The position numbers and the translations under genes were made by a program. From an uncultured Nitrososphaerota archaeon (GTDB lineage: Archaea > Thermoproteota > Nitrososphaeria > Nitrososphaerales > Gagatemarchaeaceae): 64,000 nucleotides of DNA. Location of the stretch: assembly GCA_963838925.1 (NCBI GenBank), contig CAWISW010000002.1, positions 352,001-416,000 on the forward strand. Reading direction: 5' to 3'. The notes under the pieces are model-generated. The model was not told the origin of the DNA, searched no databases, and was given only the letters and a program-made list of their open reading frames with translations. Shown here piece after piece: positions 44,754-62,780 of this stretch (position 1 is the first letter of the stretch; every line of letters begins with the position of its first letter).

Positions 44754-44768
44754 CATAAGTGACTTATG
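44754..44768. promoter_or_regulatory. Perfect palindrome CATAAGT-G-ACTTATG, candidate ThiR operator
   Basis: Lies just downstream of TTATAAAT (44741) in the divergent ECF/ThiR promoter. Confidence 0.5.
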
Positions 44769-45712
44769 CCATGCATCCCCCCTGTGAGATAATGGTCGAC
44801 TCCTTCCTGCCCTCCATGCGAGCGCTGGTCGCCAAGAGGCTGAAGGAGGACGGGCTCTCCCAGGGCAAGATCGCGAGCCTCCTCGGGATGACGCAGGCCT
44901 CGGTGAGCTCCTACCTCTCCACCTCCTCGCAGAAGCCGACGAGCGCGCTCTCGAGCCTCGGGGTCACGTCAGAGGAGGCGGAGACCTACGCCGCGCTCCT
45001 CGCCGAGGACCTGAAGAACAACCCCACTTACGCCGTCGCCACCCTCTACTCGATTTGGAGCAGGCTCATCGGAGGCGGGGACGCTTGCGCGGTTCACAGG
45101 AGCGAGCATCCCTTCCTCGCGACATGCGACGTCTGCATGAAGGTGTTCGGCCCTGAGAGGGGGCACTCGGAGGGGGCGGTCGAGCACGTGGAGGGCGCCC
45201 TCCGGTCGATAGAGGGCTCTTCGCTCTTCGTGCGCGTCATGCCCGAGGTCTCAGTGAACGTGGCCTACGCCCCGGAAGGTGCCAAGTCAGCCGAGGACGT
45301 TGTCGCGATCCCGGGAAGGATCGTGAGGGTGAGGGGGCAGGCGCGCTCCTTCATGAGGCCCGAGTACGGGGCTTCCACCCACCTGGCCGCGATACTCCTG
45401 GAGGTGGAGCGAAAGCACCGCGCCCTCAGGGCCGCGATGAACCTCAGGTACGACGAGAGGATGGCTAAGGTCCTCGCCAAGCTCGGGGTCGAGACGCTCA
45501 CCATCGGGCGCTCCTATCCGTCGGGGGGCCAGGACAAGGTCCTCGGCGCGCTCCACGCCCGCCTCTCCGCACCAGCCGGCGCAGAAGAGTTCGAGGCGGT
45601 CGTCGACGTAGGAGGCGAGGGCGTCGAGCCAAGCCTCTACCTCTTCGCCGAGGACGCGACCAGGGTCGTGAAGAGGGCGATAGAGATAGCCAGGGCCTAC
45701 GCTTCAGGCTGA
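44759..45712 (+). CDS. thiR: ThiR-like regulator (HTH + ThiN domain)
   Basis: PPCE....FLP..RA, SQ..IA.LLG.TQASVS.Y, MPEV.VN, IPGRIV, YGAS.H.A, G.EP..Y. Confidence 0.85.
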   Translation: MTYAMHPPCEIMVDSFLPSMRALVAKRLKEDGLSQGKIASLLGMTQASVSSYLSTSSQKPTSALSSLGVTSEEAETYAALLAEDLKNNPTYAVATLYSIWSRLIGGGDACAVHRSEHPFLATCDVCMKVFGPERGHSEGAVEHVEGALRSIEGSSLFVRVMPEVSVNVAYAPEGAKSAEDVVAIPGRIVRVRGQARSFMRPEYGASTHLAAILLEVERKHRALRAAMNLRYDERMAKVLAKLGVETLTIGRSYPSGGQDKVLGALHARLSAPAGAEEFEAVVDVGGEGVEPSLYLFAEDATRVVKRAIEIARAYASG

Positions 45713-47356
45713 GCGCGCGGCGACCTGGACCTTCTTCCCCTTCGTCTCGTGGGCGACCATCGCGGCCTTGAGGAAGGCCAGGAACATCGGCTCGGGGTAC
45801 TCTGGCCTGCTGCAGTACTCAGGGTGGTACTGGGTGCCCATGAAGAACGGGTGGTCCTTCAACTCTAGGATCTCGGCGCGCCTCCCCCCGTCGCTGAACG
45901 CTGAGAAGTGCATCCCCGCGTCCTCGAGCTTCTGCATGTAGGCCTGGTTGAGCTCGAACCTGTGCCTGTGCCTGCCTCTCACGCTCTTGCTCTGGTAGAT
46001 GTCAAAGGCCTTGCTCGGCTTCTCCACCGAGATGTCGTGGCCTCCCAGCCTCATCGTCCCTCCCATGTTCGAGATGCCCTTCTGCTCTGGGAGCAGGTCG
46101 ATGACAGGGTCTGGGGTGTTCTGGTTTATCTCGACGGAGTTGGCCTCCTTCAGGCCCAGCACGTTCCTAGCGAACGACACAATCGAGAGCTGGAACCCGA
46201 AGCACAGGCCGAGCAACGGCTTCTGCGTCCGTCTGGCGTAGTCGGCCGCCCACATCTTGCCCTCGGTCCCCCTCTTCCCATAGCCCTGGGGCAGGACGAC
46301 TCCATCCGCCGCGTCGATTGTCTTGCGGGCCGCGTCCACGCGGCTCGTACCCTCGAAGTCCTCGGACTCTATCCACTTGATGTCCACGCCGACGCCGTTC
46401 GCCGCGGCCGCGTGCTTCAGGGCAAGGTTGACGCTCACGTAGCTGTCCATCAGCGTCACGTACTTCCCGACCATCGCGACGGTCACCGACCGCTTCTGCC
46501 GGACGAACCTCGAGGCGACCTCGTTCCAGTCGAGGAGGTCGGTCCTCCTAACCTTGAGGCGAAGGTGCCCCACCAGGGGCTTCATGACCCCTTCCTTGAA
46601 CAGCGCTTCCGGTACCTGGTAGATGGTCTCGACGTCAGGGTTAGAGATGACGCTGTCCACCGGGACGCTCGTGAACAAGGCCAGCTTCTCCTTCGCATCA
46701 GCTGGGAGGGACCTCGTCCCCCTCACGACGATGAGGTCGGGCTGTATCCCTATGCGCCTTAGCTCCTGGACGCTGTGCTGTGTGGGCTTCGTCTTCATCT
46801 CCCCAACCGCTCCCATCTCGGGCGCGAGCGTGACGTGGACGAAGAGCGTGTTCTCCATCCCGTCCTCGAGCCGCATCTGCCTGAACGCCTCGAGGAATGG
46901 CAGGCTCTCGATGTCCCCCACCGTCCCCCCGCACTCTATCACCGCGACGCTCGAGCCGCTCTTGGTCGTCCGCTCCCTGATCCTTCGCTTGATCTCGTCG
47001 GTCACGTGCGGGATTATCTGGACGCACTTTCCGAGGTACTTGCCCTTCCGCTCGTCCTCGATCACCGCGTTGTACACCTGCCCGGTAGTGATGTTGTCCT
47101 CCTTGCTTAGGTCCTTGTTGAGGAACCTCTCGTAGTTCCCCAGGTCCATGTCGCACTCGCCGCCGTCGTCCGTGACGAAGACCTCGCCGTGGGCGATCGG
47201 GTTCATCGTCCCCGCGTCGAAGTTGATGTACGGGTCTACCTTCATGCAGGTCACCGTGAGACCGGAGCGTTGGAGGATTTTCGCGAGAGAAGAGGTCGTG
47301 ATGCCCTTCCCGAGCCCGGACATCACCCCTCCAGTTACAAAGATGTACTTCGGCAC
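45704..47356 (-). CDS. pyrG: CTP synthase
   Basis: KYIFVTGGVMSGLGKG, HGEVFVTDDG, KTKPTQHSV, GLCFG.Q, RHRHR, QYHPE. Confidence 0.97.
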   Translation of the reverse strand: MPKYIFVTGGVMSGLGKGITTSSLAKILQRSGLTVTCMKVDPYINFDAGTMNPIAHGEVFVTDDGGECDMDLGNYERFLNKDLSKEDNITTGQVYNAVIEDERKGKYLGKCVQIIPHVTDEIKRRIRERTTKSGSSVAVIECGGTVGDIESLPFLEAFRQMRLEDGMENTLFVHVTLAPEMGAVGEMKTKPTQHSVQELRRIGIQPDLIVVRGTRSLPADAKEKLALFTSVPVDSVISNPDVETIYQVPEALFKEGVMKPLVGHLRLKVRRTDLLDWNEVASRFVRQKRSVTVAMVGKYVTLMDSYVSVNLALKHAAAANGVGVDIKWIESEDFEGTSRVDAARKTIDAADGVVLPQGYGKRGTEGKMWAADYARRTQKPLLGLCFGFQLSIVSFARNVLGLKEANSVEINQNTPDPVIDLLPEQKGISNMGGTMRLGGHDISVEKPSKAFDIYQSKSVRGRHRHRFELNQAYMQKLEDAGMHFSAFSDGGRRAEILELKDHPFFMGTQYHPEYCSRPEYPEPMFLAFLKAAMVAHETKGKKVQVAARSA

Positions 47357-47430
47357 ATTGGACCTACTTCGAAGATGTATATTGGCTTTTTTGTTGTCGC
47401 GGGGGCTTGGGGCTCTTTGCGCCAGAGCTG

Positions 47431-47466
47431 TTCTCAAGACTGAGAAACATTGCTTAGGTTTATTAG
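47431..47466 (+). promoter_or_regulatory. Operator copy 1 (TTCTCA-AGAC-TGAGAA) plus TATA (TTTATTAG)
   Basis: Same palindrome and same spacing to TATA as at 47991 and 49198. Confidence 0.7.
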
Positions 47467-47497
47467 ACCAATCCGGTCTTCAAGGGATTAGAGGAAA

Positions 47498-47920
47498 TTG
47501 ACAGTGTCTGCAGAAGAAAGGAACATCGTCCTGACGGACAGGGTCTTCCAAAGGCTGCTGAGGGCCAAGGGAGAGGACGAGAGCATCTCCGACGTGATCA
47601 TGCGCCTGACATCGACGAAGCTCTTCGGCCTCCAAAGGAGAGGGGAGGAGGAGATCCAGACTTCTGACGACGTGACGCTCTCGGTGAGCGTCGATCAGGA
47701 CCTATGCATGGGCGCAGAGAGCTGCGTGTCGCTCGCCCCCGAGGTGTTCTCACTGGACGAGAGTCAGCTGGGTCGGAGGACCGGCACCGAGCCGCTGGGG
47801 ATGATCGACGTCGAGCCGATGACAGTGGACAGCGAGAGGATCATCAGGGCAGCGAAGTCTTGCCCCTACAAGGCAATCCGCGTCCGCAACACAAAGTCAG
47901 GCGACCAGCTCGTCCCATAG
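47498..47920 (+). CDS. VapB/RHH-type DNA-binding domain fused to a single-cluster ferredoxin
   Basis: N-terminal RNIVLTDRVFQRL.RAK..DES.SDVI.RL; C-terminal VDQDLCMGAESCVSLAPEVF...AAKSCPYKAI. Confidence 0.85.
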   Translation: MTVSAEERNIVLTDRVFQRLLRAKGEDESISDVIMRLTSTKLFGLQRRGEEEIQTSDDVTLSVSVDQDLCMGAESCVSLAPEVFSLDESQLGRRTGTEPLGMIDVEPMTVDSERIIRAAKSCPYKAIRVRNTKSGDQLVP

Positions 47921-47990
47921 CCGGCGAGGACGGGCCGCACCGCGCATATGGGAGTTGTCTGACGCATTCCAATCCGCGCCGACCGGGCTC

Positions 47991-48027
47991 ATTTTCATTA
48001 TTGAAAATCGCCTCCGCCCATTAAATA
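47991..48027 (+). promoter_or_regulatory. Operator copy 2 (ATTTTCA-TTAT-TGAAAAT) plus TATA (ATTAAATA)
   Basis: Perfect 7-4-7 inverted repeat; TATA starts 12 bp after the motif end. Confidence 0.75.
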
Positions 48028-48086
48028 CCACTCGAGCGCAATTCCAGAAGAAGTAGAGTTGCACTGGCACTGGCAGGTCTATCGGT

Positions 48087-49127
48087 GTGAGTGGCCCGAT
48101 AGACTCTGACAGTGCAGAATTCAAAGAGTGGGCAGCGAAGAGGCTGGCAGAAATCCGCCTTCTTGAGGAAGACGAAAAGCGCGCGGTAGAATCGCCCCCG
48201 GATGAGCTGAAGGAGATATTTCGAGTCGTCGACTACGAGGTGGCGCCCATTCTGGACGCCGGAGGCGTCCCCATCACGAGGGAAGAGCTCGACGCGATGT
48301 TTGCCGAGTGGTTCGTCCGCAGAAGGGCCACGCAGGCACAGTCCACCCAAAACTCAGCGTCGACTGCCCAGCCAACGGAGGCCAGCGTGGCGAGCCAGGT
48401 CTCGGCCTTCTTCTCTGACCTGAGGGCGAGAAGGTTCGGGCGCCCCCTCAGGAGGGCCATGAGGTTCGTCGGCATCCTCGTCATGCTTGTCCCGCTCGTC
48501 TTCGTGCCTGTTTACTTCTTCCTGTCCGTTCAGATCCCCCCTCCAGTGGCGAGCGGAGCTGTGACCATCTCGCCTGCTAACCCGCTCATCGCGCCTGGCC
48601 AGACGCAGAACTACACGGTGCTTACTCTGAGCGAGCCTGCCTCCAAAGCCCCGGTCGCCGCGACGCTCTCGGCCTTCACGCCTCAGGGACTTTCGTTCGA
48701 CATCTCACAGTCCTATGGCGCGCCGCAGGTGACGACGCTGGTCCCGGTGGTCATCCACGCTTCGCTTTCGCTCGCCGCCGGCCCCTACCAGGTGACCGTG
48801 AGAGTGCAGGAGGGGGCCGCGGTGAGGAACCAGACCTTCACGGTGACGGTCGTGCCGGCGCTGGTGGTGATGGAGCACCTCGCGTTCGTGCCCCAGTTCC
48901 TGAACGTCACGAAGGGGACGACCGTCTACTGGATGAACCTCGACTCTACAATCGGCTGCTGCGACCCAGGATACCACGACGTCGCGTTCCGCGCCGGGAT
49001 GAACATGACGTCTCCGATACTAGAAAGGCTGGACACGTGGAGCTTTACGTTCGACACGCCTGGCCAGTTCTTCTATTACTGCACGATCCACCCGTTCATG
49101 GCCGCGGAAGTAAGCGTCACCGACTAG
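48087..49127 (+). CDS. Membrane-anchored Ig-like + plastocyanin/cupredoxin protein
   Basis: Cytoplasmic N-domain, one TM, beta-rich domain, then FVP..L.V..GTTV.W.N...H and YYCTIHPFM (type-1 Cu ligands H/C/H/M). Confidence 0.88.
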   Translation: MSGPIDSDSAEFKEWAAKRLAEIRLLEEDEKRAVESPPDELKEIFRVVDYEVAPILDAGGVPITREELDAMFAEWFVRRRATQAQSTQNSASTAQPTEASVASQVSAFFSDLRARRFGRPLRRAMRFVGILVMLVPLVFVPVYFFLSVQIPPPVASGAVTISPANPLIAPGQTQNYTVLTLSEPASKAPVAATLSAFTPQGLSFDISQSYGAPQVTTLVPVVIHASLSLAAGPYQVTVRVQEGAAVRNQTFTVTVVPALVVMEHLAFVPQFLNVTKGTTVYWMNLDSTIGCCDPGYHDVAFRAGMNMTSPILERLDTWSFTFDTPGQFFYYCTIHPFMAAEVSVTD

Positions 49128-49197
49128 GGGCAGAATCCACGTTCGCACTTGTTAATATTCCGGCCTGCACGCGCTGACTTTTGAGCCCAGAACCGTC

Positions 49198-49234
49198 ATT
49201 CTCAATCGTGAGAATCGTCTCCCCCCTATAAATG
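49198..49234 (+). promoter_or_regulatory. Operator copy 3 (ATTCTCA-ATCG-TGAGAAT) plus TATA (TATAAATG)
   Basis: Perfect 7-4-7 inverted repeat; TATA 12 bp downstream; heads the 49259-55324 operon. Confidence 0.75.
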
Positions 49235-49258
49235 CCCCACGAAGGAAACTTCACGGTA

Positions 49259-50821
49259 ATGTTCACGCTTGAAAGAAGTTCAAAGGCTGCAAGGATCGGG
49301 CAGCTAGCGCTTGGCGCGCTGCTCGGCATCTCGGCGCTGGCGCTGATGTCGCCATTCTCGCCAGTCTACGGTCAGACGCAGATCGTCACGGTCACGCCTG
49401 GATCGGTCAACTTGGGACTGACGACATCGATTGCGGTAGCCGGTCCCGCTGCGGGAAGCTACACTCTAGAGGTCGTCTCGCCTAGCGGTGTGACATACTC
49501 GCAGCCCGTAACCTTTTCAGCAGTAGGGCAGACGCAGACTCTCGTCTTCGGGAACGCCACTTCGGGCTTCAACGTCGCAGTGAAGGAGGTCGGGACATAC
49601 AACGTGTTCCTGATGCAAGGCTCGACTGTGGTGGGCACGAGTTCCTTCTACTCGACCAACAAGCTCTTCATCACCATGGACATGGTGACCGGAGGAACCT
49701 GCTATTTCATCAACAACGAGCCGAGGGGATGGAAGTGGATCCCTAGGTTCTACGTGTACTATGCATCAAACCCCACTCTTCCCCTGGCAGCAATTCCGGT
49801 TGGCGCTCCGGCAGCTGGAGCAAAGGACCTCCGCACTCTCTTGATTCATGACGCGAACATCACCGTGACTTTCACGCAGCCTGACAACAAGACGGTCACG
49901 ACTGCCTCTTGGGACTCCGGGGCGCTCCTATGGAGAGGGATAGTCAATCCGGCTTGGAACTACACCTACGTCGGGTCATGGAACCCTACCGTGACGGCCA
50001 AGGACGCCGCCGGTAACTCGGGCACCTACCAGTACACGGGGTACCCCTTCGACATCACCCCAGCCACGCTCACGGCGGGCATAACCCTGATTGACTCCAA
50101 GACGGCAGCGCCGGTCGCCTCGATCTACGCTGGAGAGTCCATCACCATCAGCGCCATTGTCAAGTATCCAACCAACCCTGAGCCGACGACAGGGTTCGTG
50201 ACCGGCCTCGACTCAGTCAACCGCGGAGGCGTGGTGACTGCCATCGTGGGATGGGGCACATGGAACGCCACGACAAACACCTTCGGCGGTGGCGCCGCCA
50301 ACCCTGGCGGAGTCTTGGGCACCGTAAAGCTGACAAACACTAACGGCATCAACGGCACATGGACTGGGCCGTTCACTGTAGCCTCCACACTACCAACACT
50401 TCCAACTGGCGTGAGCTTCGCCGTGGCCATACAATCATCTGACAAGGCCAATCCACCGAATACGGGTCTTCAAGTAATGAGCTTGGGACTTGCGCCTACA
50501 CCCGCAGCAGGCGGAGGCACAGTCTCCACCACGACAGTCACAGCACCCGCCGCAACGACCACGGTCACAGGACCCGGAGCGACGACTACGGTGGTAGTAT
50601 CGGGCTCCCAGACCCTCACTCAGGCAACTAGCACAACCACCGCAACGACAACCGTAACCGCGGCCGTCAGCACCGCTGTAAGCACTGCATTCAGCACAAT
50701 GACATCGACCATCTCGCAAGTGACCCAGTCGATACCGACGATCGCATACGCCGGGATGATAGCCCTCCTAGTGGTCGGACTCGTCATCGGGCTAGTAGTG
50801 AAGATGCCAAGATCGAAGTAG
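49259..50821 (+). CDS. Secreted beta-rich glycoprotein with a Thr-rich stalk and C-terminal TM anchor
   Basis: Signal peptide, sequons, poly-Thr linker, C-terminal hydrophobic helix plus basic tail. Confidence 0.8.
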   Translation: MFTLERSSKAARIGQLALGALLGISALALMSPFSPVYGQTQIVTVTPGSVNLGLTTSIAVAGPAAGSYTLEVVSPSGVTYSQPVTFSAVGQTQTLVFGNATSGFNVAVKEVGTYNVFLMQGSTVVGTSSFYSTNKLFITMDMVTGGTCYFINNEPRGWKWIPRFYVYYASNPTLPLAAIPVGAPAAGAKDLRTLLIHDANITVTFTQPDNKTVTTASWDSGALLWRGIVNPAWNYTYVGSWNPTVTAKDAAGNSGTYQYTGYPFDITPATLTAGITLIDSKTAAPVASIYAGESITISAIVKYPTNPEPTTGFVTGLDSVNRGGVVTAIVGWGTWNATTNTFGGGAANPGGVLGTVKLTNTNGINGTWTGPFTVASTLPTLPTGVSFAVAIQSSDKANPPNTGLQVMSLGLAPTPAAGGGTVSTTTVTAPAATTTVTGPGATTTVVVSGSQTLTQATSTTTATTTVTAAVSTAVSTAFSTMTSTISQVTQSIPTIAYAGMIALLVVGLVIGLVVKMPRSK

Positions 50822-52633: not shown

Positions 52634-53461
52634 GTGACGTCTTTGACTCCAGAGAACGACAAGGACGAAAAGAAGGAGGCCGCCCAGCCGCAGGGGGCGT
52701 CTCCCAACGACCAGAGCATCACCCGCAGGAACCTGCTGAGGGCGGGGCTCACTTTGGGCCTGATCACCATGGTCGCAGGCATCGCCTCCGTGGCGAAGTC
52801 GCTCTTCTCCCCGGCAAACCCGCCCTCGCCGCTGGAGGCGCAGACCACCACTCCCACGGTCACCAAGACCAAGACGGTCACCTCCACGATCACACAGCAA
52901 GGAGGCAACCAGACCGGAACAGCCTCTGCGAGCGCTACCACATCAGAGGAGAGCACCTCGACGTCGACCACGTCGACCACCTCTTCTCCTTTCCCGCAGC
53001 TGATGATAGCCAACATCAGTGACCTCGTCGTGTCCACTCCGATATCGTTCAACTACCCTCTTGAGGAGACACCGAACATCCTGGTGAAGCTCGGGGTGAA
53101 GGCTGAAGGGGGCGTCGGGCCGGACGGAGACATCGTCGCGTACAGCGTGGTGTGTCAGCACCTGGGCTGCATCATGGGCTTCGTCGCGAAAGGAGATGCA
53201 CCCGCTTGCGAGTCTGACTATACGGCAGCCGGACCGATAGGGTACTGCTGCTGCCACGGGAGCGTCTACGACCTCGTAAATGGCGCGAAGGTGACGGACG
53301 GGCCGGCGCCGAGGGCTGTGCCTCAGGTGACCCTCTCAATCGACGACTCTGGGGACATATACGCGGTGGGCATGGGCCCGCCCACGATCTTCGGGCACAC
53401 CAGCGGCTCAAACAACGTCTTGCTTGACCTTCAAGGCGGCACGCTCGTGAGTGGACAATAG
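52634..53461 (+). CDS. Tat-exported Rieske [2Fe-2S] protein, SoxL/AioB-like
   Basis: TRRNLL Tat motif, FNYPL...GGVGPDGDIVAYS, CQHLGC, CCCHGS.YD, GPAPR. Confidence 0.93.
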   Translation: MTSLTPENDKDEKKEAAQPQGASPNDQSITRRNLLRAGLTLGLITMVAGIASVAKSLFSPANPPSPLEAQTTTPTVTKTKTVTSTITQQGGNQTGTASASATTSEESTSTSTTSTTSSPFPQLMIANISDLVVSTPISFNYPLEETPNILVKLGVKAEGGVGPDGDIVAYSVVCQHLGCIMGFVAKGDAPACESDYTAAGPIGYCCCHGSVYDLVNGAKVTDGPAPRAVPQVTLSIDDSGDIYAVGMGPPTIFGHTSGSNNVLLDLQGGTLVSGQ

Positions 53462-55052
53462 AATGACAGAGCAAGAAGCAGAGTCAAGTCAGCAGGAAGA
53501 AGAGAAGAAGAGCTCGAGTCGCTTCCATCCTTCCGAGGAGGCGGCCCCTCACGAACGTCTGCTCGCCAGGACAGTCCACTGGTTCGACGACAGGCTCGGG
53601 CTGTCGTACCAGATGTTCCGGCCCGCGCCGGCTTACTCTGTCAACCCTTTCTACTGGCTAGGCGCCTTGGCGGTGGTCGCCTTCGGAATCCAGGCCGTCA
53701 CCGGGATGATGATGATGATCTACTACATCCCCACTCCCGCGCAGGCATACTCCTCCACCCTCTTCATCTTCGAGAACGTGAGCTACGGCAGGTTCCTCGA
53801 GACGGTCCACCTCTATACCGCTTACGCAATGATAATGCTCGCCTTCATGCACATGATGAGGGGCTACTTCGTCTCGGTCCACAAGAAGCCGCACGAGCTG
53901 ATGTGGATAACCGGAATGATAATGGGATTCGTCACGCTGGGCTTCGGCTTCACCGGATACCTTCTCCCCTGGACGGTCGTCTCCAAGTCCGCCACGGACG
54001 TCGGGATCGGGATGATGGCCGCCCTTCCCCAGCCTCTATCGAACTTCATACAGTTCCTGATCGTAGGCGGGGGGACGGACTCCGGGACGATGCTGAGGTT
54101 CTTCGACCTGCATGTCGTGGTCCTCCCCGCCGTCCTCGTGATCCTTCTCGCCGGGAAGATGTACATGCTCGAGGCGCACGGCGTGTCCGAGCCCGTCACG
54201 GGGCCGGTCCCCGTACCTGAGAAGAAGAGGAGGCTAATCCCGATCTTCCCAGACCTGACGTTCTACCTGCTGGAGCTAGCTGCGCTGTTCGGAGTGGCGA
54301 TCTTCCTCATCTCCGTCGCCTTCCCGCTCAACCTTCCGCCCCAATACACCCCGACACTTGCAGCCCAGTCTACGCCGCAGCCTGACTGGTACTTCCTGTG
54401 GGTCTACCAGGTGCTGAAGATCGCGATCTTCGAGGGCCCCGGGCTCACCGTAGCGCTCACCCTCATATCCCTGGTCTTCATCGGGCTCATCGTACTCCCC
54501 TTCGTGGACAGGGGCACCAACCGCAGGATAGCGTCGAGGAGGAACTTCGTCACGCTCGGGCTGATCTTCGTGGCTGAGGTCGCAGTCCTGACCCTCTGGG
54601 GATACGAGACCCCCGGGAAGATCATCCCCAACGAGCAGGCCGTGCTATACCTCGGCGGGACTGCCCTTCTGGTGGCCCTGGTCTCGGCGGGCATGTACAG
54701 AGTGATCTTCAGAGGGCTGCCAAAGGGGACGACCCAGGCTGGGGGCACGACGACGACCCCCACCGGCGCCCCGTACGCGACGAGAGCGTTCAACAGCGCC
54801 GCGCTGTGGACCGCCTCCAGCTTCGTGGTGCTTCTGACGCTCGGGACGTTCGGCATCGGCGGCGCGCTATCCTCGTCGGTGCAGCTGATAGTGCAGGGCG
54901 CCAGCTTCTCAATCCTCTCGTCACTAGCGGTGTCGCTCGCAGAGCTCTCGATAGCGGTCGCGGGGACTGTCTACCTTCTCTATCGGCTTGACCTGGGCAC
55001 GGGATCGATCAGGCGCAGGGTGAAGGCGTTCGAGGTGGGGTGGAAGTCGTGA
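53451..55052 (+). CDS. Cytochrome b of a Rieske/cyt b complex (fused subunit IV, extra C-terminal TMs)
   Basis: Q.VTG....YY.P, H-x13-H in helix B, FTGYLLPW, FFDLH, PDWY Qo motif. Confidence 0.94.
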   Translation: MDNRMTEQEAESSQQEEEKKSSSRFHPSEEAAPHERLLARTVHWFDDRLGLSYQMFRPAPAYSVNPFYWLGALAVVAFGIQAVTGMMMMIYYIPTPAQAYSSTLFIFENVSYGRFLETVHLYTAYAMIMLAFMHMMRGYFVSVHKKPHELMWITGMIMGFVTLGFGFTGYLLPWTVVSKSATDVGIGMMAALPQPLSNFIQFLIVGGGTDSGTMLRFFDLHVVVLPAVLVILLAGKMYMLEAHGVSEPVTGPVPVPEKKRRLIPIFPDLTFYLLELAALFGVAIFLISVAFPLNLPPQYTPTLAAQSTPQPDWYFLWVYQVLKIAIFEGPGLTVALTLISLVFIGLIVLPFVDRGTNRRIASRRNFVTLGLIFVAEVAVLTLWGYETPGKIIPNEQAVLYLGGTALLVALVSAGMYRVIFRGLPKGTTQAGGTTTTPTGAPYATRAFNSAALWTASSFVVLLTLGTFGIGGALSSSVQLIVQGASFSILSSLAVSLAELSIAVAGTVYLLYRLDLGTGSIRRRVKAFEVGWKS

Positions 55053-58421: not shown

Positions 58422-59323
58422 ATGAAGGTCACCAAACGATGCCTGTTGGTCGCGCCTTTCAGCAGGAGGGCTCAATGGTGGCCCCTGATTGTAATGGGGC
58501 TCTTTTCTCTGATACTCTATTGGGGTCAGTTTCGGACGTTTCTGGGTCTCAACGCGCCGACGCTGAGCGAATTGGCCAACCTTGCGAATTTGCTTATCGT
58601 AGGGTTGATTTTTGTGGAGGCTTGGCCTTTTTTAGGCATCCACGGCTCCATCTCCGTAAGAGACAACTAGAGTATCATCGTCATCCGATTATCTACAAGC
58701 TTCCATTCATGACTCAGGAAGCTTATGATAACCCCGTTCTAGAGATATTCGCGGAAGTTCTCAATTTCAGCGGGTTTCTGCCAATAGTGCGAGCCACCGA
58801 CTGTCATGCACAAGTCATGTTCTTGGGGACGCAGAAGAACAAAGTCATAACCGCCCTTGACGACCGAATATGGGACAACGGGAAATCTTCGTTAACAATG
58901 CACACTGGCTTGCACCCAAGGTCAGTGAGGCTTTTCGCTTTGGACACCATGAGCCACATCATTGTCGAGAAGCGAGACGATGAAGATGGCGAGATTACTC
59001 CGGCGATCTTGCCAAACGGGGAATATCGGATGATTATTGTGCTTGATGCAGAGGACACTATGTCTACTGAGCAAGAGCTGGGAACCTTCAATTTTCCCGA
59101 CTCGTTCCTTGCTGAGGCTCAAGCTGAGACTTCATCTTACGATGTGTGGAAAGGAAGAGTGAGTGACACTGGCTATGCCATCTTCATAGAGAGAACTAGG
59201 GAAGGAAAGAACATAGCAAACGTGGTTGGTAAAGTTCCGGACAAGCGGTTAGCCGAACTGAAGTCAAAGGAATTGAAGGGTTTCGAGGTTAGGACATTGT
59301 GGCCCGCGCCTCCGTCATCGTAA
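58422..59323 (+). CDS. Passenger membrane-anchored hypothetical protein, frameshifted at a T6 run (58628-58633); start uncertain
   Basis: The two-TM ORF (..VEAWPF) joins the soluble ORF (FRHPRLHL..) if one T is added. Confidence 0.55.
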
Positions 59324-59372
59324 TATCCATATGGATATAGACTTAAGTAGTGGCATATCCATAGGGATATGC
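59323..59372 (+). promoter_or_regulatory. Transposase promoter with twin palindromic operators around a TATA-like box
   Basis: ATATCCATATGGATAT (59323-59338), ACTTAAGT (59341-59348), GCATATCC-ATAG-GGATATGC (59353-59372). Confidence 0.75.
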
Positions 59373-60277
59373 GTCGAATCATGCCTTGCAAATACTGCCT
59401 CTCGCAATGCGTCAAGCCTAACGGCTCGATGAAGGGAAAGAAGACGCTAAAGTGCATGGATTGCGGTAAGAGATTCACGGAGAGCGAAAGCCTTCCGAAA
59501 ATGAGGGTGAACAAGCACGCCATAGTCACGGCCCTCTCGATGTATTTCGAAGGCCTCTCTACGCGCAAGGTCTCTCGCCAGCTAGAGTCGATATTCGGAG
59601 AGAAGGTTTCGCAGGTCACGATTTGGAAATGGGTGAGGAAGTATTCGGTTCTAGTCAGCGCCTACACGAAGACGCTCTCGCCCCAAATCGGCGGAAGGTG
59701 GCACCACGACGAGACCGTGATACGATGCGAGGCTCAGAACCAATGGTTCTGGGAGATGCTAGACGAAGACACGCGCTTTATAGTCGCGTCGCACCTTTCA
59801 GAGACTAGGACGCTCAAGGACACAATCACCCAATTCAGGAAGGGGCTTGAGACGGCCAAACACAAGCCGACCGTCCTGTATGTCGATGGCTCGAACCAAT
59901 ACGACCAAGCCTTCAACACGGTCTTCTATTCGAGATACAAGGTAGCAAGGCCTGAACTAGTGAAGAACATCGGCATACGCTCCCGCGAGACAAACAACAT
60001 CATAGAGCGACTGCATGAGACCGTGAAGGAGCGCACCCGACCGATGCGCGGGTTCAAGAACCAAGACTCGGCCCGAGCGATCTTGGAGGGATATGTGGTG
60101 AATTACAATTTCGCAAGGCCTCACCTGTCCTTGAAGGGGAAGACTCCCGCACAACAGGCGGGAATCGAGGTGAAGGGATGGAAGCAATTGGTAGAAAACG
60201 CCATAAAGAAGGAGGCCTTGAACCCACAAAGTCAGGAGGGAGAGCGAATCACAATCGCTCCTTTGCAGGTGGTATGA
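59369..60277 (+). CDS. IS6-family-like DDE transposase with N-terminal Zn ribbon and HTH
   Basis: CKYC...CMDC; GLSTRKVS...VTIWKWV; WHHDET, VDG...Y, NNIIERLH; YNFARPH.SL.GKTPA. Confidence 0.92.
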   Translation: MRRIMPCKYCLSQCVKPNGSMKGKKTLKCMDCGKRFTESESLPKMRVNKHAIVTALSMYFEGLSTRKVSRQLESIFGEKVSQVTIWKWVRKYSVLVSAYTKTLSPQIGGRWHHDETVIRCEAQNQWFWEMLDEDTRFIVASHLSETRTLKDTITQFRKGLETAKHKPTVLYVDGSNQYDQAFNTVFYSRYKVARPELVKNIGIRSRETNNIIERLHETVKERTRPMRGFKNQDSARAILEGYVVNYNFARPHLSLKGKTPAQQAGIEVKGWKQLVENAIKKEALNPQSQEGERITIAPLQVV

Positions 60278-61778: not shown

Positions 61779-62780
61779 TCACTCGGGCCTGAACTGGTAG
61801 GTGGGCAGCGCGAGGTCCGATATGTCGACGAAGATGCTCGCCACCCTCTCCAGGAGCGCGAGGAGGTCGACCATCATTCCGGTGGACGTCCCCTTCATCC
61901 CGACCATCCCCTTCGAAAGCTCGCCGAGCTTCTCTCGCATCGCGGCCACCTCGGTGTGGGTGCGCCTCGGCTGTACGCGCCTCCTCGCCAGGAACGACGA
62001 TATCGCGACGTCGCCCATCTTCTCCAGCGTGCCGAGGAACTGGACCAGCTGCGCGGCCACCTCCTTGCCCAAGTCCTCGCCGGCAGCGCGCTTTGAAAAG
62101 TCGGCGACTGCGTCCCCGAGGCTCTCTAGGTAGCTCGCGAGAACGCGGTAGTCGAGGCACTCGATGGGGGCAAGCTTGTACCTCTCCGCGACCTCAGGAT
62201 CGATGGTCGCCGTCCGGATGGTCCTGACCAGGAGGAAGTAGAGCCTGTCCACCTCGTCGTCCCTCTCGCCCACCAGCGCCAGAAGGGCGCGGTCGTGCCT
62301 CGCGCCCTCCGCGGAGTCCCGAAGCATCCCGCTGATGAGGCTCGCCATCCTCCTCACTATCCTCTCCGGGTCGAGCACCGCCGGGTCGGGGAGGAACTGG
62401 AGGGTCATGCTCTTCGCGTCCTCGTCCACGATCTCGAGGCCCACCAGCCTCGTCACGGCGGCCTTGAGCCTCCCCCTGTCCTCCCTGGATATCACCGTCT
62501 TACCCTCGACCCGTATCGCGTTGCTCCCCATGAGGTAGGCGCCGGTGACGTCGTTTGTCACGTAGCTCAGGCTCTCCCTCGGGTACTCGATGACGACCTC
62601 TTGGTCCTCCTGCTTTACGCCCTTCTCGCCTATCGGCTTCACCATTAGCCTCCTCGCCGAGATCTCTTCCACGGCCACGCTCGAGCCACGCACGATGCCG
62701 TTCTTCTTTGCCCAGCTCTTCGGAAGGGAGATCAGGACGGTCCCCCCGCCCATCTCAAGGACCTTGCGGGTATCCATCAA
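61779..62780 (-). CDS. AbrB-PhoU phosphate uptake regulator
   Basis: RKV...GGGT..ISLPK.WA, RDDEVDRLYFL..R, LESLGD, LERVA. Confidence 0.92.
   Translation of the reverse strand: MMDTRKVLEMGGGTVLISLPKSWAKKNGIVRGSSVAVEEISARRLMVKPIGEKGVKQEDQEVVIEYPRESLSYVTNDVTGAYLMGSNAIRVEGKTVISREDRGRLKAAVTRLVGLEIVDEDAKSMTLQFLPDPAVLDPERIVRRMASLISGMLRDSAEGARHDRALLALVGERDDEVDRLYFLLVRTIRTATIDPEVAERYKLAPIECLDYRVLASYLESLGDAVADFSKRAAGEDLGKEVAAQLVQFLGTLEKMGDVAISSFLARRRVQPRRTHTEVAAMREKLGELSKGMVGMKGTSTGMMVDLLALLERVASIFVDISDLALPTYQFRPE

Follow-up and report, generated by a model that had tools for sequence, protein, structure and literature searches.

What does an antitoxin-type DNA-binding module do at the front of a ferredoxin? 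The question is raised by a gene at 47498..47920 (forward strand) of a 64,000-nucleotide (nt) stretch of DNA from an uncultured Nitrososphaerota archaeon of the family Gagatemarchaeaceae (hereafter the window; assembly GCA_963838925.1, contig CAWISW010000002.1, positions 352,001 to 416,000). Its product joins a VapB-type ribbon-helix-helix (RHH) module to a single-cluster ferredoxin, and a palindrome lies in its promoter as well as in those of neighboring respiratory genes. A preliminary description of this DNA had proposed that the fusion protein is an iron-sulfur (Fe-S)-gated transcription factor acting on the palindrome. Here we analyzed the fusion, its promoters and its relatives in 97 genomes of the same family. 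Both the fusion and the palindrome regulon proved to be genuine. However, the fusion is most likely an output of the regulon in this genome and its closest relatives, not its master, and the most likely reader of the palindrome is a different protein, a candidate regulator with an HTH_10 domain.

Architecture and conservation of the fusion

In the list of open reading frames (ORFs), the fusion gene starts with TTG at 47498 and encodes 140 amino acids (aa); an alternative start, GTG at 47504, lies two codons in and would give 138 aa, and a 138-aa database entry is 99% identical to the protein. The Pfam scan placed VAPB_antitox (PF02697) on aa 8-41 (33.8 bits; cut-off 27.9), with only positions 1-34 of the 69 profile positions being spanned, and both Fer4_15 (43.4 bits; cut-off 22.4) and Fer4_13 (37.9 bits; cut-off 24.5) on aa 63-129. 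The gene was also recovered when the genome was scanned with PF02697. An NCBIfam scan gave no further family above threshold, and the two scans together returned VapB-type and ferredoxin families only, with no homology to FNR, Rrf2/IscR, SoxR or WhiB. Three parts can be distinguished by the domain matches, the structure models and conservation in 70 sequences: a VapB-type RHH module (aa 8-38, 47519..47611; strand at ~8-13, helices at 14-23 and 30-38), a basic linker S-T-K-L-x-G-L-Q-R-R-G (aa 39-49, 47612..47644) and a single-cluster ferredoxin domain (aa 50-140, 47645..47917), all on the forward strand. The only cysteines are C70, C76 and C122 (codons 47705-47707, 47723-47725 and 47861-47863), in the pattern C-M-G-A-E-S-C ... 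C-P, with Ala73 at the usual position of the second Cys. The protein had been described as a VapB/RHH pattern followed by a CxxAxxC...CP ferredoxin with the second Cys replaced, an architecture to be sought as an antitoxin RHH plus Fer4_13/15; since the two Pfam domains, the three-Cys motif and the alignment of Ala73 (below) all agree with it, that description is correct.

An AlphaFold2 model of the full fusion, made with 70 homologues, had a mean predicted local distance difference test (pLDDT) score of 84.5, with the two helices at 14-23 and 30-38, low values for residues 40-45 and high confidence for the ferredoxin domain (50-139), which is opened by an extra beta-hairpin (aa 50-65). When the N-terminal 54 residues were modeled alone, the pLDDT was 88.1 and the linker prolonged helix 2 (30-38/47); the RHH strand is unpaired in the monomer model. 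Foldseek found nothing significant for this 54-residue model, its top row being Arc (1myl, E 5.1). A VIA-align scan of 48,161 chains placed RHH proteins in most of its 50 best rows (Z up to 5.0), including TacA, ParD2, NikR, the PutA RHH, AmrZ, Arc, omega, ParG, FitA and VapB12; TacA, ParD2, NikR, the PutA RHH and Arc matched at Z 4.6-5.0, values that are modest for a model of 54 residues but form a consistent list of matches. On the strength of the strand-helix-helix model and these rows, we accepted an RHH fold for the modeled N-terminal domain, as had been supposed from the letters. A two-copy homodimer prediction scored 0.12 against a mark of 0.42, which gives no answer either way.

For the ferredoxin part, Foldseek returned 4ov1, 1siz, 4id8, 8amp and 1fxd (E ~1e-3 to 2.5e-2; template modeling score by target 0.66-0.84), several of which are [3Fe-4S] single-cluster ferredoxins, and the profile match in the Protein Data Bank was 4id8 (E 2.6e-7). 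In the profile alignment, Ala73 stands opposite the His of the [3Fe-4S] ferredoxin 4id8 and opposite the second Cys of the [4Fe-4S] ferredoxin 1dax. The sequence has the three-Cys signature of the [3Fe-4S] subclass: the second motif position is occupied by a residue other than Cys, and a fourth conserved Cys is lacking. Most probably the fusion ferredoxin holds a [3Fe-4S] cluster. C70, C76, C122 and P123 were invariant in 70 of 70 sequences and A73 was present in at least 90%; therefore, the three-Cys pattern is a conserved property. One clade (g2) carries the motif CLGTGFC, in which Thr replaces Ala where the fourth ligand would be; the number of Cys remains three.

The RHH part appears to be similarly constrained. 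A23, E28 and R36 were invariant in the 70 sequences, basic residues occurred at positions 8, 15 and 19 in 61, 63 and 62 of them, and the core positions 10 and 12 of the strand had entropies of 1.08 and 1.11 bits. The linker columns (aa 39-49) had entropies of 0-1.06 bits except position 43; R48 was found in 69 of 70 sequences and G49 in all. As judged from these alignments, selection has kept the RHH core intact. On the outward-facing side of the strand, on the other hand, positions 9, 11 and 13 showed the greatest variability of the domain (2.50, 2.65 and 1.81 bits).

With regard to its distribution, 171 database proteins matched the fusion at E <= 1e-3, and of the 120 listed, 103 combined PF02697 with a Fer4 family; among those listed, the few homologues with a name came from Nitrososphaerota/Thaumarchaeota. 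Among representatives of 50%-identity clusters, 144 matched, 13 of them at E <= 1e-10, and the remainder were plain ferredoxins. Within the family to which the window belongs, 29 of 97 genomes (GTDB species representatives), from 6 of the 10 genera, encode a full-length fusion (matching from query residue 10 or before to 132 or beyond): 6/23 genomes in g1, 5/6 in g61, 2/3 in g62, 3/3 in g63, 1/1 in g65 and 12/55 in g2 (genus, family, genome and contig labels are ours). An assembly artefact, which could have undone the preliminary description, is ruled out by these counts. No full-length match was found in a sample of 200 other genomes of the class (one of them, G132, flagged as unpublished), the sister family (f2) matched with the ferredoxin part only, and an ESM Atlas search returned only the fusion's own family, in Nitrososphaerota. 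Thus, the fusion is genuine and kept within one lineage, with a conserved basic linker that joins a VapB-type RHH module to a single-cluster ferredoxin of three cysteines. Automatic Joint Genome Institute (JGI) names already read 'ferredoxin/predicted CopG family antitoxin', and the architecture is therefore visible to annotation pipelines. Full-text literature searches, whose coverage leaves out most subscription papers and the supplements, gave no description of an RHH-ferredoxin fusion or of the palindrome, and the matching passages of a paper on archaeal fusions (PMC11237513) do not mention the former.

The resemblance to antitoxins raises the possibility that the fusion still belongs to a VapBC-type circuit, as an orphan derivative that acts on vapBC operators or pairs with a stand-alone VapB and makes toxin-antitoxin expression redox dependent. 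The PF02697 scan found three stand-alone genes of this family in the 1.84-Mb assembly that contains the window (G000); the RHH of their products closely resembles that of the fusion, including L-x-x-L-x-G after helix 2, and two of the three are followed by an ORF with a PIN-like N-terminus (by eye, without a Pfam scan). However, the toxin-binding tail (profile positions 35-69) is replaced by the ferredoxin, and the neighbors of the fusion gene by Pfam are a divergent CTP synthase gene (pyrG) and a downstream blue-copper gene, with no toxin gene adjacent. No PIN family was found among 100 neighboring ORFs scanned around the 29 orthologous loci (from 122 greedy ORFs of at least 90 aa, the other 22 being fusion ORFs or overlapping them), a scan that small genes beneath spurious long ORFs could escape. 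The absence of an adjoining VapC, first remarked on at this locus, thus extends to the ORFs scanned around its orthologues, and both regulation and synteny point to respiratory genes. Because the RHH resembles the stand-alone PF02697 proteins, yet a PIN partner was not found, we consider the module to be of VapB origin, to judge from sequence, and the protein no longer to be a toxin-antitoxin antitoxin; a role in such a circuit seems very improbable.

The palindrome regulon and its candidate reader

Three exact copies of TTYTCA-N4-TGARAA are present in the window, where 0.25 would be expected even at one mismatch and none of 100 shuffles reached three, and they lie where the preliminary description had placed them, in the fusion's own promoter and in those of the neighboring respiratory genes. 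The first, TTCTCA-AGAC-TGAGAA (47431..47446), is separated by 12 nt from the TATA-like box downstream of it (TTTATTAG, 47459..47466, forward strand), which belongs to the fusion gene, lies ~32 nt before the TTG and leaves a short leader or none. The second, TTTTCA-TTAT-TGAAAA (47992..48007), is 12 nt upstream of ATTAAATA (48020-48027) in the blue-copper promoter. The third, TTCTCA-ATCG-TGAGAA (49199..49214), is 12 nt upstream of TATAAATG (49227-49234), behind which a gene row reaches the Rieske and cytochrome b genes (52634-55052). The same spacing was found throughout the assembly: G000 contains 13 exact palindromes against 0 for a reversed control (C1:180917; C2:7086, 75993, 90615, 147272, 399431, 399992 and 401199; C3:529996, 535422, 582791, 583199 and 700871), and all 13 have a T/A-rich octamer exactly 12 nt off on one side. 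Across the 97 family genomes, 335 palindromes were counted against 8 control sites, with at least one site in 85 of them. The palindrome is therefore a genuine regulon site, positioned like archaeal upstream activating sequences. Its signal resides in the exact 16-nt core; an 18-nt version with three mismatches was not enriched in the window (4 against 2.2 expected).

The genes flanking the palindromes of G000 include an HTH_10 regulator together with a divergent V4R protein, a second V4R protein, hemA and a small ORF resembling the GlutR dimerization domain, as well as genes for AllG-like, DsrE-family and universal stress proteins, a secreted FAD flavoprotein, an ABC ATPase and a 293-aa protein of no assigned family. 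The site at C2:147272 has a TATA-like box on both sides, with hemA on one strand and the GlutR-dimer-like ORF on the other. We rejected katG as a target: the TATA-like box at C3:529996 faces the ABC-ATPase gene on the opposite strand, and the katG start is 174 nt off. In the article on copper limitation in N. viennensis (PMC7785015, supplements apart), the promoter motifs differ in sequence from the palindrome.

Some gene starts near these sites deserve a comment. At 47354-47437 (reverse strand), the longest ORF of pyrG begins at 47437, inside the palindrome; a likelier start is the GTG at 47356, directly followed by the conserved CTP-synthase N-terminus PKYIFVTGG, which makes the divergent intergenic region 141 nt long. 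The first ATG of a 529-aa ORF (49232) falls within the TATA-like box TATAAATG, and its start is probably the ATG at 49259 (MFTLERS...), giving a leaderless or near-leaderless mRNA.

Does the fusion itself read the palindrome, alone or with the HTH_10 regulator, and gate the respiratory island by the state of its cluster? Some features of the locus favor this. The site is shared by the promoters of the fusion gene and of the two transcription units that follow it, an arrangement that recurs in another genome (G220, with the order palindrome, fusion, palindrome, blue copper, palindrome), and half-sites 10 bp apart could accommodate two RHH dimers. In addition, three genomes in which the fusion occurs (G220, G234 and G214, with 8, 8 and 5 sites) gave no match to the HTH_10 regulator, and in 3 of the 29 loci the HTH_10 gene is next to that of the fusion. 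However, the palindrome is independent of the presence of the fusion. First, the 29 genomes that encode the fusion averaged 3.9 palindromes each, and the other 68 averaged 3.3 (6.2 and 5.7, respectively, within genus g1). Second, when five site-rich genomes without the fusion were searched with the fusion-family profile, namely G227 (one contig, 95% complete, 9 sites), G257 (97% complete, 13 sites), G217 (11), G236 (7) and G228 (10), only short RHH-like stretches appeared, none reaching the ferredoxin part. Third, the 200 nt upstream of the fusion gene contained an exact palindrome in 5 of 29 orthologues and one with two mismatches in 4, whereas 20 had none with up to two mismatches. Finally, the outward-facing residues of the RHH strand vary among orthologues, while the palindrome is invariant across genera, and an activator-like position of the site is at odds with the habit of RHH proteins, which usually repress; a site upstream of the TATA box is typical of activators. 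Thus, the part of the preliminary description that made the fusion the factor acting on the palindrome did not hold up, the regulon being family-wide regardless of the fusion. We are fairly confident that the fusion is not the reader, and control of the respiratory island by its own binding to the palindrome appears improbable. Because the palindrome is independent of the fusion, rare in fusion promoters and fixed upstream of the HTH_10 gene, the fusion itself is most likely one of the outputs of the regulon.

The caveat attached to the original proposal, that a different factor may bind the site, turned out to be the better reading. The HTH_10 regulator of G000 (229 aa, C2:90680-91369) has a C-terminal HTH_10 domain and an N-terminal domain with four invariant Cys and no Pfam match, and ~65 nt separate its start from the upstream palindrome at C2:90615. 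Of the 30 best orthologous loci, which come from several genera, 28 have a palindrome with up to two mismatches 59-72 nt before a conserved MLRQ start (7 exact, 16 with one mismatch and 5 with two), whereas by our own calculation ~0.016 chance matches are expected per 150-nt region. C31, C92, C102 and C105 were invariant in all 30 orthologues, the recognition helix is conserved, and half-sites 10 bp apart suit a helix-turn-helix dimer. From this pattern, the most likely reader of the palindrome is an autoregulated HTH_10 protein whose four invariant Cys would make it a candidate metal or redox sensor. The HTH_10 gene is within 1.5 kb of the fusion gene in the 3 loci mentioned above, which hints at a functional tie between the two. 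The HTH_10 palindrome site of G000 also has a divergent gene, which encodes a Cys-rich V4R protein.

Three observations weigh against this assignment, which is accordingly incomplete. In G227, only an HTH_10 paralogue of 27% identity was found, with no palindrome upstream; in G259 (94% complete, 5 sites), neither the fusion nor the HTH_10 regulator was matched with these queries; and the three genomes cited above have both the fusion and sites but gave no HTH_10 match. Many of these assemblies are incomplete, G220 being 76% and G234 79% complete. In G227, a VapB-like RHH gene that stands alone, no toxin gene being seen behind it, has a palindrome 198 nt upstream, and a second palindrome lies 97 nt upstream of a gene for a 195-aa protein whose N-terminus is RHH-like by eye.

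Possible roles of the fusion protein

If the fusion does not read the palindrome, what would it do once expressed? In the mechanism that we propose, a Cys4-HTH_10 activator encoded elsewhere in the genome would read TTYTCA-N4-TGARAA 12 nt upstream of ~13 TATA boxes and would jointly switch on the fusion gene, the blue-copper gene next to it and the gene row of Rieske and cytochrome b. The fusion would dimerize via its RHH module and act as a second-tier DNA-binding regulator whose activity depends on the cluster, and its putative sites would be different from the palindrome and fast-evolving, for example in its own or local promoters. Binding to DNA is favored because the RHH core is intact and selected, basic residues 8, 15 and 19 are kept, the linker is strongly conserved and the module is much like the RHH of the stand-alone PF02697 proteins of G000. 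Characterized RHH modules bind DNA, and in NikR and PutA the module is joined to a sensor or redox domain. We would give DNA binding of any kind close to an even chance, whereas the predicted role of a second-tier, cluster-dependent regulator at sites other than the palindrome falls slightly short of that. More tentatively still, the protein may represent the first Fe-S-cluster-gated RHH regulator, a putative VapB antitoxin derivative in which the tail was swapped for a [3Fe-4S] ferredoxin and which, induced by the HTH_10 protein, would feed redox or Fe-S status back onto its own or neighboring respiratory promoters in soil Nitrososphaerales.

Several results speak against such a regulator. 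First, its DNA target was not found, as no conserved operator was detected near the gene in the 29 orthologues. Inverted repeats in the 50 nt before the 29 starts had a mean arm of 4.31 against 4.04 +/- 0.17 in shuffled sequences, which is not significant (7% of mononucleotide shuffles reach the observed mean), and the promoter repeats differ between close orthologues with nearly identical strand residues, while other orthologues have none. Second, the residue at the central strand position is Glu in 9 of the 70 sequences and in each of the 14 g2-type orthologues that were parsed, which is unusual for the center of a DNA-reading strand. Third, the ferredoxin domain is closest, in both sequence and fold, to ordinary electron-transfer ferredoxins. 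Fourth, the same ferredoxin type is joined to other N-terminal modules, a membrane anchor in G270 and DnaJ in the sister family. Finally, the genes under the regulon in other genomes include a plain ferredoxin-like one in G257 and a flavodoxin-like one in G260, as judged by eye without a Pfam scan. In the fusion promoter of the window, the inverted repeat AGACC-N5-GGTCT (47465..47479) lies between the TATA box and the start codon. We rejected it as an operator: the window contains a single exact copy, and with one mismatch allowed there are 6 matches where 3.6 are expected. A repeat search with a seed of 6 reported nothing in 47380-47520.

The same results favor a simpler role, that of an electron carrier only, in which a [3Fe-4S] ferredoxin is induced with the blue-copper and Rieske/cytochrome b module and uses its RHH for dimerizing or docking. 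Its nearest relatives (4id8, 4ov1, 8amp, 1siz and 1fxd) are electron-transfer ferredoxins, including P450-type [3Fe-4S] proteins; the combinations with a membrane anchor or DnaJ suggest that the ferredoxin is the working part and that the N-terminus places it; the regulon has ferredoxin-like and flavodoxin-like genes elsewhere; and the strand residues are variable and partly acidic, with no operator found near the orthologues. Moreover, redox neighbors are frequent across the 29 loci. The neighbors vary, but blue copper (4 loci), cytochrome b, flavodoxin, thioredoxin-like, hemerythrin and COX15-like proteins occur among them. In the window, the gene downstream of the fusion encodes a membrane blue-copper protein of 346 aa with a Copper-bind Pfam domain (48087..49127, forward strand), co-regulated with the fusion, and five of the six g1 genomes that encode the fusion (G000, G234, G231, G220 and G223) have this gene or its orthologue as the next gene downstream, the orthologues outside G000 being 59-67% identical to it. 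On the other hand, the whole family conserves the RHH core together with the basic residues that flank its strand, and dimerization does not explain the strongly conserved basic linker L-Q-R-R-G. To our knowledge, no characterized RHH module serves as a mere dimerization handle, which also counts against a carrier. On balance, a pure electron carrier is a serious possibility but a rather doubtful one, and we continue to prefer a second-tier regulator as the working proposal.

Two related ferredoxin proteins were seen in the course of these searches. A paralogue in G270 (C73) has the same CxxAxxC...CP ferredoxin behind a hydrophobic, probably membrane-spanning N-terminus instead of the RHH. In the sister family f2, a DnaJ (J-domain), a linker and a CxxCxxC ferredoxin are fused in frames of ~215-265 aa, which were matched with the fusion as query in 112 of 114 sampled genomes.

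Other features of the window and comparison with known systems

Further regulator-like fusions were observed in the window: a protein with an HTH-like N-terminus and ThiN (thiamine-regulator-like) at 44759-45712 and an AbrB/MazE-type domain joined to PhoU at 61779-62780. The same AbrB-PhoU gene adjoins the fusion in two orthologous loci (L050 and L052). A DDE/IS240-type transposase gene (59369-60277) is preceded by two near-identical palindromes, ATATCCATATGGATAT (59323-59338) and ATATCCATAGGGATAT (59355-59370). The sequencing runs listed for 47300-49300 were two soil-metagenome DNA runs from one study, with no RNA run among them. A search of G000 for AmoA (PF12942) gave no match, but it was equally silent in control genomes and hence uninformative.

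Transcription control in uncultivated soil Nitrososphaerales is almost wholly uncharted, and this locus offers two testable handles. One is a sharply defined site that marks a redox/respiratory regulon throughout the family and comes with a concrete candidate reader of the HTH_10 type; the other is a small, easily expressed protein that combines an antitoxin-type DNA-binding fold with a three-Cys ferredoxin. If the latter binds DNA in a cluster-dependent manner, it would represent a new class of Fe-S transcription factor and the recruitment of a toxin-antitoxin part to respiratory control; if it does not bind DNA, it would be an example of a ferredoxin with a dimerizing or docking handle. Arguably, the family-wide palindrome and its Cys4-HTH_10 candidate are a more useful lead than the fusion, and the claim that the fusion governs the island via the palindrome should not be carried forward absent a binding test.

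Compared with known systems, the N-terminus of the fusion has the strand-helix-helix and the L-x-x-L-x-G of archaeal VapB antitoxins (PF02697, COG1753 type), whereas a ferredoxin takes the place of the toxin-binding tail, no PIN gene is adjacent and the promoter belongs to a respiratory/redox regulon. The ferredoxin shares its fold, its sequence family and the CxxXxxC...CP pattern, with three Cys ligands and a non-Cys second position, with the [3Fe-4S] ferredoxins HaPuxC of R. palustris (4id8/4ov1), Fdx of M. tuberculosis (8amp), the P. furiosus ferredoxin (1siz) and FdII of D. gigas (1fxd). In contrast to the fusion, which adds the beta-hairpin at aa 50-65 and the RHH module, these are free-standing electron carriers of 58-81 aa.

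With respect to regulators, the candidate reader shares a C-terminal HTH_10 and a site upstream of the TATA box with activators of the Bat/DmsR type, whose haloarchaeal members respond to oxygen or redox state; it differs from the latter in its occurrence in Nitrososphaerales and in its Cys4 N-terminal domain, and its binding would follow from the site upstream of its own gene. The closest parallels in design to the fusion are NikR and PutA, the latter a redox-switched RHH regulator. Both combine an N-terminal RHH with a C-terminal cofactor-binding domain, and their RHH structures match the N-terminal model (1q5v, Z 4.9; 2rbf, Z 4.8), whereas their sensor domains are not homologous to the Fe-S ferredoxin, and DNA binding and an operator are only putative for the fusion. 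We know of no RHH precedent for an Fe-S ferredoxin as the sensor domain, and the full-text literature searches likewise found none.

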